A stretch of DNA of 64,000 nucleotides from a virus (taxonomy: Duplodnaviria; Caudoviricetes): the IMG/VR virus record IMGVR_UViG_3300035516_000188, positions 314 to 64,313 of that record; one strand, written 5' to 3'. The first letter of the stretch is position 1. Each line of letters begins with the position of its first letter. The translations under genes and the position numbers were made by a program. Of the stretch, positions 2,132 to 14,583 are shown one piece after another. The notes under the pieces were generated by a model. That model was not told the origin of the DNA, did not search any database, and was given only the letters and a program-made list of their open reading frames with translations.

Positions 2132-2320
2132 CTATTTCAGATAGCTGTTCACAATCGGATTATCCTTTATCTTATCCAAAAGCGCAGCCATCTTCTTAGC
2201 CGTGATAGCGATACCTTTGCTCCGCTTGTAGTCCACGAAGTCAAAGAACGCTTGCTCGAAGTCGGCAATCTCTTGCTCGCTATCTGCGTAGATTGATACT
2301 GTTGCTTTGGTAGATTTCAT
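2132..2320 (-). CDS. hypothetical protein
   Basis: 62-aa ORF, ATG start, co-oriented in the operon. Confidence 0.65.
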   Translation of the reverse strand: MKSTKATVSIYADSEQEIADFEQAFFDFVDYKRSKGIAITAKKMAALLDKIKDNPIVNSYLK

Positions 2321-2377
2321 ACGCTATGCGTTTTAGTGCAACTTTATTGCGTTATTTTCATTTTATGTGCGTCACAT

Positions 2378-2773
2378 TCACTTTATCAACGGAGGAATTT
2401 CCGCAGCCGAGCCTCCTGCCGCACTCGCCGTTTCGCTTGCTACCTCGCTCGCGCTTTCCACAGTCTCCGCCACACTCGTCGCTCCACCTGCCCCAGCTCT
2501 AATCTGCTGAATAAAGCTGTAAGCGTCAATAAGGTCATTCTTGTTTTCTTTGATCCACCCAAAGAACTGACCTGCGCCTTGCTTGATTTGCTCGTAGATG
2601 GACGGATTAGGAATATCGAAATCGGGCATAGTCTCCACTCCGTCTGCCAAGAAATTATATAACCGCTCCGCTTTTTCAATGTCTCTATCACAAGCCATAA
2701 GGCAAGATAGTTTGAGCGATATTTTTGAGCTTGGGTTGATCATCTCGATTTTTATCTTTGGTTTGCCAAACAT
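2378..2773 (-). CDS. hypothetical protein
   Basis: 131 aa with Ala/Ser/Glu low-complexity tail. Confidence 0.7.
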   Translation of the reverse strand: MFGKPKIKIEMINPSSKISLKLSCLMACDRDIEKAERLYNFLADGVETMPDFDIPNPSIYEQIKQGAGQFFGWIKENKNDLIDAYSFIQQIRAGAGGATSVAETVESASEVASETASAAGGSAAEIPPLIK

Positions 2774-2902
2774 GGGGAGTTACTTAGGGGTTTGAAAGTG
2801 GAGAGAAGTTGGGGCGACTTGCGCCACCCCAACCGAGGTGCTTGCGCTGCGCTTGCTCGCTTACGTCGTGTTTGCGTCTGCGTGAGCTTGCTCGCGTAGG
2901 CG

Positions 2903-3412
2903 TTAGCCGTTGCAGCAACCGCAGTTCTGCTCGCTCACACGTTGGACGCGGAGAGCGCAGTTCTGCTGAATTACGCTTGAAAGCGGATTGGTGTTGCTAC
3001 CATTGAGCAATGCCAAAGCCTCTGCCGTAGCTAAAGCCTGCGACTGAGCGTTAGACGTACCGCCCGTTGCCGTAGCTCCGGTCAGTGAGCGCAAAGTCTG
3101 TGCCACGTCGATGTTGATGCTATCGGCGCGCTGGTTGTCGGCAACAACACGGTTAGCCAAAAGCGCAACGAGGTCAGAATTGGCCTTTGCCTGTGCGTTC
3201 ATCGTGTTCTGGTTGCCCATAGCACGAGCCTTAGACGCAGAATTGACCGCCCAAGCGCCAACAAGAGCCGTCAGCAATGCAGCACCACCGAGACCAGCTG
3301 CAAGAGCAACGCCAGTAATGGCCGTGCTGCTTGTATGTCTGCGGTGACAATACCCATCGCGTTCGTCGTCTCGGCGAAGAGCCATAACGTCAGCTATTGT
3401 CAAATTCTCCAT
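2903..3412 (-). CDS. protein with Gly/Ala hydrophobic segment and C-terminal Cys cluster
   Basis: Start reassigned to ATG 3412 (MENLTIADV) because a -7 promoter element lies at 3453-3460 inside the longer ORF call; ends QNCGCCNG. Confidence 0.7.
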   Translation of the reverse strand: MENLTIADVMALRRDDERDGYCHRRHTSSTAITGVALAAGLGGAALLTALVGAWAVNSASKARAMGNQNTMNAQAKANSDLVALLANRVVADNQRADSINIDVAQTLRSLTGATATGGTSNAQSQALATAEALALLNGSNTNPLSSVIQQNCALRVQRVSEQNCGCCNG

Positions 3413-3452
3413 GATATTAGGTATTAGGTTGCCGTCAATATTAACGGTACGG

Positions 3453-3460
3453 CAAAGGTA
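3453..3460 (-). promoter_or_regulatory. Bacteroidota -7 promoter element for the Cys-rich operon
   Basis: TACCTTTG matches TAnnTTTG; no -33 TTTG at the canonical spacing. Confidence 0.55.
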
Positions 3461-3521
3461 TGCCGTGTTTTCTTTTGGAAAAATTCTGTTGCAAATTTTT
3501 GCTAACTGATTAATACACAAT

Positions 3522-9600: not shown

Positions 9601-9844
9601 CAGAGTATGTTACTTTCGTCCACGTCCAAAGGTATAAATACCCGTTCGGATTGTAGTTTGAGGCTTCCGAGATAGACGTGTACCACGTGGCAGAAAAACT
9701 CGGCTGTGAGTTTTCCTTAGTGAACAAATAATAGGTGACGGTGCTCGTCACTTTTGGGCTAACACCGTCTTTACCGTCTGTTCCGTCCGTACCGTTCCTG
9801 GGGGCGCGTTTTACGGTAGTAGAGTTTGACGCAACGTAAGCCAT
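6695..9844 (-). CDS. tail fibre protein with duplicated modules
   Basis: 1049 aa; short collagen-like GxxGxxG stretches at the N-terminus; two copies of an ~120-aa module containing LTRWNPNGTEQGG; two GDGTNYGA repeats. Confidence 0.7.
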   Translation of the reverse strand: MAYVASNSTTVKRAPRNGTDGTDGKDGVSPKVTSTVTYYLFTKENSQPSFSATWYTSISEASNYNPNGYLYLWTWTKVTYSDGVVSNTVAMTKQGENGTNGLQGCLSYQTEYDDKTLYRNDYGKTKSQIIADIQNLGISDTSGIDLTPRIDRVSITETNGDFTLYLCKKTHVSSVDTKPNPAVEGNWNNYWDAISVQNPTYFSTLFASNAIFRFGQANQIIVVDSNSTNISAGMSGASADSDIVFWAGGSRAEYNSETGEGATWLVRRNGSGYAAKGAIQFNTDGTIVANGANFSVTSTSNDSTNWGTLAAITPIYEKGSISKMHPNVPFDNLEINDNKGNSSSTLTIGKGFQLFSDNDENTGVISFNRNINNGALYNSKYYGYQLADLKGNLILTRWNPNGTEQGGNVGIFTSSPQYPIHINALLYAKNLQTEELTLSKITIGKATLSFDSTNGVLKISGSGLVAEGDVCALNTESSEDGGGGASNLSDLLDVSVSDVDDGQVLVWDSGLSKWVNQTVSFSGGDVDFNTVASRAYVSENFVSKTEIASYYTKSEINTKLESIDNDIADIRDNYVDQDGLNSTLEYYLKSETANKTYAKLSDLINGSVTKIGTSDVGGSTKPIYLSNGVPTACGDRINATADFANKIVSSTTTIGASDLPVYLNNGEITACDTKLSVNITGGAYSAKVLETARNIKIGDGTNYGASTSFNGSADISISLPSTIKATLKGNADTATKFTSSVQLRVGDGTNYGAYVDFDGSKSISLPLPSTIKATLDGNAKTLLIGTMDYDKTDDSSSTLIIGGNMQLFANSSDYGGVISFNRKISGGKIFNPDYYGYQLANIKGNMVLTRWNPNGTEQGGHLGIFALADDNYDVKIGGSIRGGNTKLDKLTLGSASIYWDDTNSVLKIDGATLVASGDVCALGNYDGLYKESAEVKSIGIIEEDYLSTQLFFYTKEDAAIEYVRNEALRIFSASNLALHSANAVSITALGGFSLEAGDIMLKSDNFGIKTNTFEVEAPGGAVINDKSFSDVIDRINTLLDKAGLSSQKL

Positions 9845-9856
9845 GCATCATAGGAT

Positions 9857-10243
9857 TTAAAGTTTTCCGATAACCTCTGAGGCAATCTCTTTTGCGTGCG
9901 TGCGGTAGGCTTGGTAGGCTTGGTATTCCTTGATGTACTCCTGCCGCTTCTCTTCCGTGAGGTCTGTATCCTCATCTTTTGCCCGCTCTAAGTTGGCGAA
10001 GATTGCGTCACGGCTGTCAGCGTCGTATTTGTCGAGGATGATTGCCGAGACAATACGTGAATACGTGAACGGGGCTTGAATGTCTACATTGGTACACTTA
10101 CTGCCAATGCGTTTCTCTGTGTTTTCTCCGTCAAAGTTATCTGAATACTCGTGCTCTTCGCTATCAAAGAACAAGCGAAGCAAAGACCCCTCTTTGATAG
10201 CCTTTACTCCGCTAAACGTTTTGTTATCGCTGTAACTTACCAT
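9857..10243 (-). CDS. hypothetical protein between DGR RT and tail fibre
   Basis: 128 aa, helical C-terminus (EYQAYQAYRTHAKEIA). Confidence 0.7.
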   Translation of the reverse strand: MVSYSDNKTFSGVKAIKEGSLLRLFFDSEEHEYSDNFDGENTEKRIGSKCTNVDIQAPFTYSRIVSAIILDKYDADSRDAIFANLERAKDEDTDLTEEKRQEYIKEYQAYQAYRTHAKEIASEVIGKL

Positions 10244-10270
10244 ATTGCTTATCTTTATTAGGTGGATTAA

Positions 10271-10885
10271 CTACTCTTGAAAGATAAACGTGCTTTTCCC
10301 ATTTCCTAAATACTTCTTGATAAGAACGCAATCCTCTACGGGAAATATCTTCTCACCATTCAGTTCTCTGTTTGCTGCCTCTTGCAATACCTCAATAATG
10401 AACGGCGAGGTCGTGAATACCTTTCGCTGCCTACCGTCAAGCTCAATAAGCATGATGTATCGTCCTTCGCGGTCTTTGACCTTAACATCTGATACGAAAG
10501 ACAATACCGTGAATGTCAGACCTACGAGCTCATCTTGTCTGATGGAGTCCACGTCATAGAATTGCTTCCCATCTCTAAGTGCTCGTGCGTTCGCCTTTAT
10601 TCCTTTGCTCGCGAAACTCATGTCTCCGTCTGTGATTTTGTTGTATAGATTTTTGCCCTCGCAGTGTTTTAGCATTCCATATCCAAAAGCAAGCACCTCG
10701 TGTCTGCGTTTTGGTGTCTTTGCTCTGCTTAACTTTTTAGCAAAACTCTTTTTATTGCGTTTCCTGACCTGTGTGTAAACTCCATTGAAAACGTACCCAA
10801 GAAAATCAATCGACCTTCCTCTTCGAGGCTCTTTGCCGTTTTCGTTTGTGCGTCCCATAGTGGCTTTTACACGCTTCGCGACCAA
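10271..10885 (-). CDS. DGR reverse transcriptase part C (motif 7/thumb) fused to an extra C-terminal domain
   Basis: IDFLGYVF motif followed by a basic thumb (RKRNKKSFAKK) and ~115 extra aa; alternative ATG at 10858. Confidence 0.75.
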   Translation of the reverse strand: MVAKRVKATMGRTNENGKEPRRGRSIDFLGYVFNGVYTQVRKRNKKSFAKKLSRAKTPKRRHEVLAFGYGMLKHCEGKNLYNKITDGDMSFASKGIKANARALRDGKQFYDVDSIRQDELVGLTFTVLSFVSDVKVKDREGRYIMLIELDGRQRKVFTTSPFIIEVLQEAANRELNGEKIFPVEDCVLIKKYLGNGKSTFIFQE

Positions 10886-11138
10886 TAGGAGCTACCACAG
10901 CTGAATGCTTGACGATAAGTCCTTGCCGCGAAGATAACATATCTAATTGTCTTAACAAAAAATTTGCCTCACTTTTTGATTTTGCGAGCATTACTATATC
11001 ATCGCAATTCAAAGAAAAGCATTTTACATGGTACACCTCCTTAAAGATATGGCAAATCTCGTCGATGCACAAGTTGGCAAGTATTGGACTTAGGAGCGAC
11101 CCAATGGTAATGCCCATTTTCTCTCTTGCGCTGCTCAT
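10806..11138 (-). CDS. DGR reverse transcriptase part B (catalytic palm)
   Basis: GITIGSLLSPILANL (GxPxG..S..LANxY-type motif) and NCDDIV at the YxDD position. Confidence 0.8.
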   Translation of the reverse strand: MSSAREKMGITIGSLLSPILANLCIDEICHIFKEVYHVKCFSLNCDDIVMLAKSKSEANFLLRQLDMLSSRQGLIVKHSAVVAPIGREACKSHYGTHKRKRQRASKRKVD

Positions 11139-11703
11139 TGTCTAACTCGTCTGTGAGATTACTTTCGTAAGATAATTGGGTGAGGATAATAAGCTGAATA
11201 AACCGCTCATCTTTAAAGGTTCTGTGCAAGGCTTGAATGATGACGCTGTGAGGTATTGATTGAAAAAATTTCTTGAAATCCGTCTGAACATAGTATTGAT
11301 ATTCCGGGTAACGTCTTAGGAACATCTTCATACGTCTTACTCCGAAGTGTGTTCCTCTTCCCTCTACACTCGCGTAGCTGTCGTAGATGAACTTCTTGTT
11401 TAATCTATCTTTTATAACAAGATATATCGCCCAATCTAACAATCTCCACGGATAGAAATATTTCTTGTCAAGGTCTCTAATCTTATCATCGGCAGACTTC
11501 GCTTCGCCTTTGTGATATACCAACGGAGGAAAGTTCAGCGTCAATATCATACCTCTAAGTTTAAGCAACTTATTATCTTTGTCTTTAAGAAAATCCAAAA
11601 CATATTTCTTTCTTGTTTTTCCCCTTATCGACATTATTGCCGCCCTTCTTAGGTTATCCATGTCGGCTACCTGCTCAAGTAGATAACCTTTTATTCTTTT
11701 CAT
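11041..11703 (-). CDS. DGR reverse transcriptase part A (N-terminal/fingers)
   Basis: MKR start; KIRDL..KYFYPWRLLDWAI, YDSYASVEGRGTHFG and QTDFKKFFQSIPH motifs typical of DGR RTs. Confidence 0.85.
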   Translation of the reverse strand: MKRIKGYLLEQVADMDNLRRAAIMSIRGKTRKKYVLDFLKDKDNKLLKLRGMILTLNFPPLVYHKGEAKSADDKIRDLDKKYFYPWRLLDWAIYLVIKDRLNKKFIYDSYASVEGRGTHFGVRRMKMFLRRYPEYQYYVQTDFKKFFQSIPHSVIIQALHRTFKDERFIQLIILTQLSYESNLTDELDNEQRKRENGHYHWVAPKSNTCQLVHRRDLPYL

Positions 11704-11903
11704 TTCTCATAGTGTAATAAATGTTAATTTGTTTTTATTCCAGCATACTGGAGTCTCCCACGGTCGTTCAACATAGTTACTAAACCGTCTTGTTCTGATT
11801 CCTCAAAACCTTTCCGGATTATTTGTTTTCCGACATCTCGCAATCTTACATTGCGGGTCGTGGCTGAAAGTCCACGGTGCTTGCACCGATTTAATATTGT
11901 TGT

Positions 11904-12010
11904 GCGAGAAGCGATGTTCGAGTTCGAGTTCGAGAACGCGTTGTTCGAGTTGACGTAAAACGAGCCGCAATTCGAGCCGTTGTTCGCGTTACCACCCACG
12001 TGACAGAGCT
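11904..12010 (-). repeat. DGR template repeat (TR)
   Basis: 107 bp matching 12263-12369; AAC-rich; 24 adenines on the coding strand. Confidence 0.95.
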
Positions 12011-12176
12011 TCTGAACTTTCCCGCCAACTAAGCATTGCTGCTTAGATTTCGACCACAAAGGTAAGTGCTGTGACAATATTATCCAAATGTTTTGCCAAA
12101 AATGTCGAAAAAGTTTTATTTTTTTCTTTGCATAAGGCTTGTTTTAGCCTAAAAATCGTTCACTCAGTACTACAAA

Positions 12177-12209
12177 TCACCCCCGCCGCCTTACGGACGG
12201 CGGGGGTGA
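12177..12209 (-). other. GC-rich hairpin 3' of VR (DGR target-recognition hairpin and/or terminator)
   Basis: TCACCCCCGCCG / CGGCGGGGGTGA 12-bp stem with inner CC-GTAA-GG loop on the minus strand, 17 nt past the target stop codon. Confidence 0.7.
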
Positions 12210-12226
12210 ATAGTTCCGCCAGAGTA

Positions 12227-13528
12227 TTACGCAACAAACTTAATTTGTCCGTAGTATGCTGGGCGAGAAGCGATGCTCGAGCCCGAGGACGAGAACGCGT
12301 AGGACGAGTTGACGCAAAACGAGCCGCAATTCGAGCCGTTGGCCGCGGCACCACCCACGCGACAGAGCTGCCCAATAGAATTAGCCCAATAATTATCCGC
12401 CCAATACGACGTGGATGAACCACCAACAGTTTTTGGCAGAAAATCACAATGGTCACCGATGTACATGTACTTAACATATCCACCAGTTGTGCTGCGGGTA
12501 ATTTGGCGGTACTCACTCGCAGGATGTGTCGTGAGTTCGGTAGACGACGGGATATAATTGCCTTTATAAATAAATGCCTCCGTACCATCGTGCGCGTCGT
12601 TGGCGGAATTGCCGAAATATATCCCTTGAATATCTTGCCAATACCATCCGTAGTGGTCTTCAAAGCCGAGCAAGTTTACGCTACAAGCACCCGTCTCGGA
12701 GGTAACGTCGGTCATTGCAACCGTGCCCGTGTTATCGCCCAAAGAAGCTGTGAGGCCGGTGAGAGTGTTCTGCGTTTCTGACCACGAATTACCGCTACCC
12801 GTGCGGCCATTGCCTAACTTAGCTTGAATGTTCGTGTCGCCGTATTCAGACAGTGTAATCATGCCCATAAGCGTCCACCAAGACCAATCGCACAATCCCC
12901 ATCCGTCGCCGAAGTTGTGGGCATACGTCCAAAAAGTGCTAATGTAGTAAGATACATTTGACACGGTACCTGCCGTAGGTTTATACCCCGACCGCGACAC
13001 GAGCTTATTGCTCTGAACGTTGCCAAGATAAGCACCATAGCAAAAATACTGACCGCCGTTACAATCGCCAATGCGATACCCGCCAATAGGGTATTCGCTC
13101 ATCCAAAGCATGGGAACCCCAGTGTCGGCATCCTCCTTGACAAGATAATACAGTGATGGCCCAATCACCATAACCTGCTTGTCCGTTTCGTCGGCTGTTT
13201 CGCCCTTAGCTGTGAGCGTAGAGTCGTTTGGGTGTAGCTTTGTCACCTCGCCCGAAGATGTCATTAAATACCTGCCCACCCTGCGTTTCCACTCCTCGTA
13301 CATTGCCGTATTACCAGACACACCGTAATACGTCGAGGAATACGAGTCGGACTGCTTAATCGGCACACACCACGCAATCTGTGATAAGATAAGATTTCCG
13401 CCGTTGTTGATAATATCCGCAAGCGAAGATATTGGCAGTCGTCGTACAGACCCGCCAATCTCCACTATCACGGAGTTCGTCGATAGTGCCGACGACACCT
13501 GCGCGACACTTCCTAATGATTTTGACAT
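12227..13528 (-). CDS. DGR target protein with C-terminal CLec/FGE-like variable domain; probable adhesin
   Basis: C-terminus RVGGAAANGSNCGSFCVNSSYAFSSSGSSIASR, typical of DGR CLec folds; located among tail genes. Confidence 0.85.
   Translation of the reverse strand: MSKSLGSVAQVSSALSTNSVIVEIGGSVRRLPISSLADIINNGGNLILSQIAWCVPIKQSDSYSSTYYGVSGNTAMYEEWKRRVGRYLMTSSGEVTKLHPNDSTLTAKGETADETDKQVMVIGPSLYYLVKEDADTGVPMLWMSEYPIGGYRIGDCNGGQYFCYGAYLGNVQSNKLVSRSGYKPTAGTVSNVSYYISTFWTYAHNFGDGWGLCDWSWWTLMGMITLSEYGDTNIQAKLGNGRTGSGNSWSETQNTLTGLTASLGDNTGTVAMTDVTSETGACSVNLLGFEDHYGWYWQDIQGIYFGNSANDAHDGTEAFIYKGNYIPSSTELTTHPASEYRQITRSTTGGYVKYMYIGDHCDFLPKTVGGSSTSYWADNYWANSIGQLCRVGGAAANGSNCGSFCVNSSYAFSSSGSSIASRPAYYGQIKFVA
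12263..12369 (-). repeat. DGR variable repeat (VR)
   Basis: 14 mismatches to TR, every one at a TR adenine; lies at the 3' end of the 433-aa gene. Confidence 0.95.
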
Positions 13529-13557
13529 ATCTCTTTTCGTTTAGTTAGTTATTTTTT

Positions 13558-14583
13558 TTAGATTGTTACCGTAGCGATGACCGTCACGTCAGACTGCTTG
13601 GAATTACCTTTGTCATCCGTGTAATCAGTATCAGCCGTGGTAATCGTTATTGTACTGTCTGTCACGGTGCGTACCGGCTCGTTCCACACCGTGTCTACTC
13701 TGTAAACATCGTAGCTGTACGTCGGTGTGCTTGATGGTTTGTACTCCACTCCGTTCTTGTAAAGCACTGCGCTAACCACTACACTGTTGTTAGCATCTAC
13801 CTGCCCGCCGCTTGTTTGGAGCTCTATTCTAAACTCGTCGGCAATATCCAAGATGTTAATCGTCGCTTGCGCGATGGGTGTTGTCGAAGATGTTGACTCG
13901 TAGGCTTTAACCACAAAAATCTGTGCGCCGTCAACCTCGCTTCTGTTTACCTTGAATGACTGCGTGCTTGCATCCACGGTCACAGATTGCGTGCCCTTGA
14001 ACGCTTTTATCGTGTATGATGTCGGGTCTACGGTTGTTCCGTCCTTATACAGCGTTGCCGTCACAGTTGTCTCGGAGTTTGTCTCAGAAAGTATCGACGG
14101 AACAGCTTCGAGGTACAAATTATACGTGTTTGAACCCAACTGCGCGATGGTAATCGTCGTGGTCTTTGTGACCTTATACTCTGTTCCAAGCACCGTCGCA
14201 ACGGCTGAATACGTAAGCACATCGTCCGCGTTGTTGGTCTTGCTCGCAAGGTTGCCGATGATTTTCAGCCACCCGCTCGAGTTCATCGCAAACTTTCCAG
14301 TCGAGTCTTTGGTGTAGTCGCCCGATGTTTCTCCGCTAAAAACAAGCTCCGTGTAGTTGTACGTCCATTTATGCGAAGCAAGCGTGACAGTGTTGCTTCT
14401 CGAGGTCGAACACGTCGGCTTGATTATCGGCTGATTAGCTGCCACCGTAAAGTCCGGCTTCGCAACACCAGACTCATCAACACCTTGATAGAGCGGAATA
14501 CCGTTTCCCTCAAAGGTAAGAAACAAGCTGTCACCCGTCTTTAATCGGGTGATGGTGATTGATTGCTGAGCTTTTAGTTCCAT
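13558..14583 (-). CDS. tail/baseplate-associated protein, Ig-like repeats likely
   Basis: 341 aa, Thr/Ser/Val beta-rich, in the tail operon. Confidence 0.6.
   Translation of the reverse strand: MELKAQQSITITRLKTGDSLFLTFEGNGIPLYQGVDESGVAKPDFTVAANQPIIKPTCSTSRSNTVTLASHKWTYNYTELVFSGETSGDYTKDSTGKFAMNSSGWLKIIGNLASKTNNADDVLTYSAVATVLGTEYKVTKTTTITIAQLGSNTYNLYLEAVPSILSETNSETTVTATLYKDGTTVDPTSYTIKAFKGTQSVTVDASTQSFKVNRSEVDGAQIFVVKAYESTSSTTPIAQATINILDIADEFRIELQTSGGQVDANNSVVVSAVLYKNGVEYKPSSTPTYSYDVYRVDTVWNEPVRTVTDSTITITTADTDYTDDKGNSKQSDVTVIATVTI

Follow-up and report, generated by a model that had tools for sequence, protein, structure and literature searches.

A diversity-generating retroelement reverse transcriptase encoded in three overlapping reading frames in a phage related to Quimbyvirus and LoVEphage: comparative evidence favouring three separate polypeptides over two +1 frameshifts

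The closest described counterparts of the element studied here are the diversity-generating retroelements (DGRs) of the phages Quimbyvirus and LoVEphage, which both match one B. dorei prophage at ~95%. For Quimbyvirus, the reverse transcriptase (RT) was reported to be encoded "in all three frames", two programmed frameshifts were proposed, and variation at adenine sites was recorded among near-identical genomes (Benler et al. 2021, Microbiome 9:78, PMC8008677). In the later literature, no paper taking up the three-frame RT after 2021 was found. In this study, a DGR RT was analyzed that is encoded on a stretch of 64,000 nt (positions 314 to 64,313, hereafter referred to as the window) of the virus record IMGVR_UViG_3300035516_000188 (Duplodnaviria; Caudoviricetes). 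The IMG/VR source record is 64.3 kb long and was estimated to be 89% complete. The three-frame RT layout was already published for Quimbyvirus/LoVEphage in 2021, and the window represents a further member. It adds a lineage outside the core clade of these elements, showing the layout to be old and stably kept, as well as evidence on the mechanism: comparison of the sequences favours three separate polypeptides, an account that we regard as moderately probable, ahead of two +1 ribosomal frameshifts, which we regard as possible but less probable.

Within the window, the RT motifs are collinear over three overlapping open reading frames (ORFs) on the minus strand, termed A, B, and C, as deduced from the ORF listing and the translations. 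The corresponding features are as follows:

11703-11041, minus strand: RT part A, 220 aa, comprising the N-terminal extension, the fingers, and motif A (TDFKKFF)
~11113-11119, minus strand: end of the constrained portion of part A (...NEQRKRE), followed by an unconstrained, out-of-frame tail of ~24 codons
11138-10806, minus strand: RT part B, 110 aa, comprising motif B (MGITIGSLLSPILANL), the catalytic NCDD, motif D, and a basic tail
11136..11138, minus strand: ATG of part B, lying within the frame-A codons AAT-GAG, with a frame-B TAG one codon earlier
10885-10271, minus strand: RT part C, 204 aa counted from the TTG at 10885, comprising the primer grip IDFLGY, the thumb, and an extra C-terminal domain
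10856..10858, minus strand: ATG of part C, lying within the frame-B codons TAT-GGG, with the ATG at 10858 being the likely start
10830..10847, minus strand: basic tract KRKRQR of the part-B tail, in which R-x-R-x-R is invariant
10274..10555, minus strand: tentative OB-like C-terminal domain of part C, residues ~111-204

The starts of the ORFs, taken modulo 3, are 0 (A), 2 (B), and 1 (C), and, hence, both junctions represent +1 changes. Parts A and B overlap by 98 nt, and parts B and C by 80 nt when counted from the TTG or by 53 nt when counted from the ATG. The Pfam profile RVT_1 was matched by part A at profile positions 20-107 and by part B at 115-186, and the PHROG 1423 profile (reverse transcriptase) was matched collinearly by A (96-265), B (282-364), and C (363-436). 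Upstream of ORF B, the sequence reads TAG (11144-11142)-ACA-ATG (11138-11136), and upstream of ORF C, it reads TAG (10894-10892)-CTC-CTA-TTG (10885-10883). The ordered motifs, the two +1 junctions with overlaps of 98 and 53-80 nt, and the start codons following shortly after an in-frame TAG at B and C had been pointed out in an earlier note made from the sequence alone; coordinates and profile matches bear them out, and the codon contexts quoted there are correct. No tRNA genes were found in the window, and no Rfam family was matched within positions 9800-13600.

The nearest named relatives of the window are LoVEphage and the induced Bacteroides/Phocaeicola prophages BI-TP1 and PV4-TP1, with part A being 45.8% identical. 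BI-TP1 features the same three ORFs in frames 0, +1, and +2. Together with the published Quimbyvirus case (Benler et al. 2021, PMC8008677), this proves right the statement in the earlier note that phages of Bacteroidales show the same split. In Quimbyvirus/LoVEphage (MW660583, PQ571265), three overlapping +1 ORFs are likewise present, the breaks fall at the same two loops, and part B ends in a basic tail; the ATG of part B lies 7-8 codons before G.PIG, and the ATG of part C lies 16 codons before I(D/N)FLGY. The gene order of LoVEphage is also the same, consisting of a ~340-aa protein, a ~435-aa target protein with a C-terminal variable repeat (VR), the template repeat (TR), the RT, and a ~130-aa protein. 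Piece by piece, the identity between LoVEphage and the window is 46% for A, 45% for B, and 44% for C, the flanking syntenic genes reach 43-49% identity, and the target proteins are 49% identical. However, the two lineages differ in several respects. Amino-acid identity amounts to only 43-49%, and the window, together with the related locus L089, falls outside the well-supported clade of Quimbyvirus/LoVEphage. Moreover, the window features K-M-G before the Gly of motif B and NCDD at the catalytic site, whereas Quimbyvirus/LoVEphage features R-G and YCDD, and one VR was found in the window record, compared to two reported for Quimbyvirus.

Further comparisons concern RTs encoded as a single ORF. 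The Bordetella BPP-1 enzyme (bRT, PDB 8ub7) shares the RT fold, as judged from the model of the contiguous relative P0003, and the adenine-specific TR-to-VR mutagenesis of a tail protein. In contrast to the window RT, which consists of three ORFs with an extra OB-like domain and in the record of which no PF05635 match was found, bRT is a single polypeptide working with an Avd pentamer. The contiguous sister RTs (P0003, P0016/P0017/P0008/P0022, P0010, and the Hankyphage-like P0023 group) are homologous over their full length, including the thumb and the OB-like domain, but are encoded as single ORFs.

Related loci were collected for comparison. Nucleotide searches of the phage collection, in near and distant modes, returned no relatives; these were reached by protein search alone. 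With part C as the phmmer query against 1.8 billion representative proteins, 132 hits were obtained, comprising proteins with C only (~190-205 aa), proteins with B+C (~270 aa), and contiguous RTs (430-550 aa). For the survey of the layout, 80 IMG/VR loci were fetched. Parts A, B, and C were found in frames f, f+1, and f+2 in ~20 non-identical IMG/VR loci sharing 40-60% amino-acid identity, while a large sister group carries a contiguous RT. Both breakpoints and both frames, the conservation of which the earlier note had proposed to check, are kept in at least 20 divergent loci, cultured LoVEphage isolates at ~45% identity among them. The breakpoints are therefore shared with divergent loci and not unique to this genome, though contiguous relatives exist in the same clade. 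A single-protein search of representative bacterial genomes revealed no close prophage of the window lineage.

In a tree of 39 RTs calculated with IQ-TREE, the split RTs are united in one clade (support 81/89). LoVEphage and all other three-piece RTs are held by a core supported by 96/93; the window and L089 lie outside this core. The single-ORF RT P0003 (L090:3001-4434) is nested in the three-piece core as the sister of L014 (98/97), and, because of this nested position, it is read from the phylogeny as a secondary re-fusion. This gene is real, being present on eight contigs with the same synteny; it features an extra 15-residue loop at junction 1 and lacks both the basic tract and the ATG at junction 2. 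Two-piece RTs were also observed. L087 and L088 are divided into A and B+C, and L046 (IMGVR_UViG_3300050587_000121, 2157-3513) is split at junction 2 only, into A+B and C, with a KRKRKRG tail and an ATG in the +1 frame. Since P0010, which is 73% identical to L046, represents one contiguous ORF, junction 2 must have arisen or disappeared repeatedly. In nature, versions of this RT in one, two, and three pieces coexist.

One further arrangement was seen in L003/L006 (IMGVR_UViG_3300036769_000084; L003:2447-4561), originating from the same JGI sample as L089. Here, the target gene and TR are followed by the last ~30 frame-B codons, encoding the K/R tail, and an intact part C, with part A and most of B being gone. 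This looks like a DGR with a partly deleted RT.

Substitution patterns were used to follow the selection acting on each frame. The window and L089 are 79% identical at the nucleotide level and show zero indels across the RT. The substitutions between them fall mostly on the third codon positions of the respective own frame (A 106/163, B 15/21, C 60/88), and the same holds for nine close pairs pooled (A 671/1114, B 193/326, C 549/874). At the RG.PIG Gly codon, the substitutions change phase, following frame A before it and frame B from there on. Beyond this Gly, the frame-A tail is unconstrained, with 60/96 substitutions at frame-B third positions, and the frame-A stop is not kept in L089. Judging from these patterns, purifying selection acts on all three ORFs, on each in its own frame. 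The three-frame layout is neither a sequencing error nor the outcome of decay. The earlier note had argued for a split RT or recoding instead of decay; this part of its reading is supported by the conserved breakpoints, by the purifying selection in the own frames, and by VR changes restricted to adenines. Of the two options it named, the comparative data on start codons and RNA context favour separate initiation over +1 recoding.

The frame-A tail itself (11041-11115, minus strand; GHYHWVAPKS, in relatives RCSDWS, as in LoVEphage, or RCANWRVHKP) resembles a 'YC.WAS..P' insert located before RGITIG in contiguous sister RTs. This likeness is probably due to chance: the L023 DNA (2650-2830) shares just CCGAT(T)GG, and the ATT-GG encoding P-I-G makes the Trp unavoidable.

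The start codons of the downstream parts were then compared over 21 loci. At junction 1, a frame-B ATG is located 5-8 codons before G.PIG in 20/21 loci, in the form N-ATG-A/G; in L024, the sole exception, a TTG is found instead, one codon before the usual ATG position. At junction 2, a frame-C ATG is located 13-21 codons before IDFLGY in 19/21 loci, preceded by A, T, G, or C. Of the two exceptions, L089 carries a GTG at the ATG codon of the window, and L020 has lost the usual ATG and features a new one at -7. As the base preceding the ATG varies, the overlapping upstream-frame codon encodes D, N, H, or Y, and T is used without exception at its synonymous third position. In the +1 frame, ATGs occur at a background rate of 3.7% per codon, and the usage ratio of NAT to NAC is 55:45; the naive binomial probability of ATG retention is ~1e-16 for B and ~6e-9 for C. 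As a control, 34 other conserved D/N/H/Y columns on the same phylogeny were evaluated, which showed a mean T fraction of 0.60, and only a single column outside an overlap was nearly fixed for T. In the re-fused P0003, the homologous codon at junction 2 reads AAC-GGA, and there is no ATG.

The RNA context of the two ATGs was also distinct from that of the gene as a whole. Windows of 50 nt centred on the ATGs of B and C were found to be more weakly folded than the gene average (mean z +1.30 and +0.68, respectively), the value for the true start of ORF A being +1.17, and their purine contents are 72% and 67%, compared to 58% for the gene. Furthermore, the three Arg residues of the R-x-R-x-R motif in the part-B tail are invariant in 19/19 sequences, encoded by AGA as well as CGN codons. 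Since the motif is kept through both codon families, frame B must be read through the tract. The N-terminus of C overlapping this tract is poorly conserved and was modelled as disordered. Taken from this comparison, each of the downstream ORFs appears to keep a start codon under selection.

The positions of the breaks were examined on the AlphaFold model of the contiguous P0003 (pLDDT 91.6), the best PDB match of which is the Bordetella DGR RT 8ub7_A (E 7e-20; TM 0.87 on the target). Junction 1 is located in the coil connecting the helix 183-196 to the motif-B strand; junction 2 falls in the loop that joins the strands 287-291 and 300-302. In the model of part C, residues 19-91 align to bRT 8ub7_A (Z 5.2) and also match group II intron RTs. 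The remaining C-terminal domain of ~95 residues is beta-rich and was modelled with pLDDT 85-90; its best matches (Z 4.3-5.6) are OB-fold proteins, namely the PRD1 single-stranded DNA-binding protein (SSB) P12 (9gfq_A; Z 5.6, 87 aligned residues), Rim1, and a bacterial SSB. A Foldseek comparison of the part C model with the PDB gave no hit at E <= 0.001, and hits to RPA70N were weak. The domain is tentatively assigned as OB-like, based on the Z values of 4.3-5.6 obtained with the predicted structure.

These observations are consistent with three separately initiated subunits assembling into the RT, to which we assign somewhat better than even confidence. Translation of parts B and C would begin within the preceding ORF, in each case at a conserved start codon of the part itself, with initiation being independent of a Shine-Dalgarno sequence and taking place on unstructured, purine-rich RNA. 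Initiation of this type is characteristic of Bacteroidota. Subsequently, the three chains would join across two surface loops to form a single RT, chain A providing the fingers and motif A, chain B motifs B-D, and chain C the primer grip, the thumb, and the OB-like domain. Both the tail of frame A and the N-terminal ~15 residues of C would represent tolerated by-products of the overlap. That DGR RTs in this clade of phages are natural heterotrimers, with one active site rebuilt from chains A, B, and C, appears to us about as likely as not. In such an enzyme, nucleic-acid binding roles of the canonical Avd may have passed to the R-x-R-x-R tail of B and to the OB-like domain of C.

Several points weigh against separate subunits. 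We know of no precedent for an RT palm built from three chains. The constrained regions of A and B adjoin with no gap between them, so that a +1 shift at this point would give a seamless RT. In most loci, AGG or CGG occupies the final upstream-frame position at both junctions, which recalls hungry-codon +1 sites. Past the junction, a further 5 to ~120 codons of frame A are free of stops, and nothing indicates that early termination has been selected; such a long unconstrained tail is easier to accept if few ribosomes read it. In addition, the start-codon statistics account for shared ancestry through the control of D/N/H/Y columns alone.

The strongest competitor, which we consider possible but rather unlikely, consists in two programmed +1 ribosomal frameshifts resulting in one full-length RT, where a low efficiency of shifting would limit the RT and, with it, mutagenesis. 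A double frameshift corresponds to the published suggestion (Benler et al. 2021, PMC8008677), and it would account for the +1 direction of both junctions, for the gapless succession of constrained regions at them, and for the long, unconstrained frame-A tails. In ~85% of the loci, AGG or CGG is the last upstream-frame codon and precedes a Gly codon of the form GGN read in the +1 frame; AGG (9.2%) and CGG (4.9%) are the two rarest Arg codons of this phage. Programmed +1 sites are represented by CUU-UGA-C in prfB, CUU-AGG-C in Ty1, and GCG-AGU-U in Ty3. The RT loci resemble these in the +1 change and in the rare AGG/CGG often being the last codon of the upstream frame. In contrast to them, neither junction features a conserved heptamer, slippery motif, or P-site codon, and there is no conserved stop at the site. 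The would-be P-site codon is AAG, GAG, GCG, CAG, or ACA at junction 1, and AAG, GGT, AAC, AGC, GCG, or CGN at junction 2. At junction 1 of the window, the rare codon is missing altogether (AAT-GGG), and L089 reads ACG-GGG there. No known Rfam element supports recoding either.

The prevalence of AGG/CGG is, moreover, expected from the overlap, as these codons consist of the third base of the frame-B Arg codon (or of the frame-C codon) and the GG of the conserved Gly. The Arg third base was observed as A in 13, C in 5, T in 1, and G in 2 cases, compared to expectations from Arg usage of 39% A, 27% C, 20% T, and 14% G; a chi-square calculated by hand (~5.6, 3 degrees of freedom, p ~0.13) showed no significant departure. 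A hungry-codon shift at AGG/CGG was, therefore, rejected in favour of a by-product of overlapping coding. The frame-B Arg before the Gly of junction 1 is kept across the AGA and CGN codon families, and, therefore, frame B is already read before that Gly. Frameshifting also leaves unexplained the conserved ATGs, their replacement by TTG, GTG, or a new ATG, and their loss in P0003. A prfB-like site at the end of ORF A (TAT-CTT-TAA-G, then GAGG) was considered as well and dismissed, because a shift at this position would skip motif B, and the TAA is CAA in L089.

An improbable alternative is that the RNA or its reading is mended in another way, namely by transcriptional slippage, by ribosomal bypassing, or by internal initiation mixed with occasional frameshifting. 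Both junctions do lie in purine-rich, partly repetitive tracts, and runs of A5-A6 occur at junction 2 in some relatives. RNA polymerase slippage, however, needs runs of 7-9, and the longest run of A or T in the shift regions of the window is 4. As no homopolymer longer than 4 is present at either window junction, transcriptional slippage was rejected as unlikely for this locus. Bypassing is opposed by the absence of any conserved pair of take-off and landing codons or of a take-off stop at the junctions.

A decaying pseudogene or sequencing indels, with a dead DGR, can be dismissed as very improbable: although two frame disruptions inside a catalytic domain normally imply decay, and the related contig L003 has lost A and most of B, the same two breaks recur in independently sequenced isolates and metagenomes, no indel separates the window from L089 and substitutions follow the reading frame of the ORF in which they lie, the RT motifs are all preserved, VR differs from TR at adenines only, and adenine sites vary among the near-identical Quimbyvirus genomes (Benler et al. 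2021, PMC8008677).

Three separate polypeptides, as the favoured account, would have consequences beyond this phage. DGR RTs are being developed as targeted-mutagenesis tools, and phages of the LoVEphage type rank with the most prevalent temperate phages found in the human gut. To our knowledge, no other natural three-chain RT has been described. If the polymerase indeed consists of three chains, an RT tolerates breaks at two defined loops, which would be useful for split-RT engineering. If a double +1 shift takes place instead, it would represent a rare case of double recoding inside a catalytic domain, achieved without a canonical shift site. With natural one-, two-, and three-piece versions available side by side, the question of the mechanism is directly testable.

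The DGR surrounding the RT comprises the following features:

11898..12010, minus strand: TR core, 113 nt
12257..12369, minus strand: VR core, 113 nt, at the 3' end of the target gene
12227..13528, minus strand: DGR target gene, encoding a 433-aa tail protein (phrog_5302 tail protein, 2.6e-45)
12177..12209, minus strand: GC-rich 14-bp hairpin (z -5.4), located ~18 nt past the stop of the target gene and ~48 nt past the VR core

The VR occupies the last ~45 codons of the 433-aa target protein and was the single VR detected within the 64-kb record. The cores of TR and VR differ by 16 mismatches, all of them at TR adenines (16/28 A). Because the VR changes are restricted to TR adenines, the target has been subject to mutagenesis by this DGR, which represents a functional element. 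The description of TR and the VR hairpin as intact, and of VR as heavily mutated at adenines, given in the earlier note, agrees with these mismatches and with the 14-bp hairpin at 12209-12177. The hairpin could be the DGR hairpin or, equally, the intrinsic terminator of the target gene.

Regarding accessory proteins, the Avd family PF05635 remained unmatched in the 64.3-kb record, which is 89% complete and in which a divergent accessory protein could escape such a search. The interval from VR over TR to the RT leaves no room for a further gene. Directly after the RT, an acidic 128-aa protein without a family match is encoded (9857-10243, minus strand). It is 49% identical to the 131-aa protein occupying the same place in LoVEphage, and a 126-aa version adjoins P0003.

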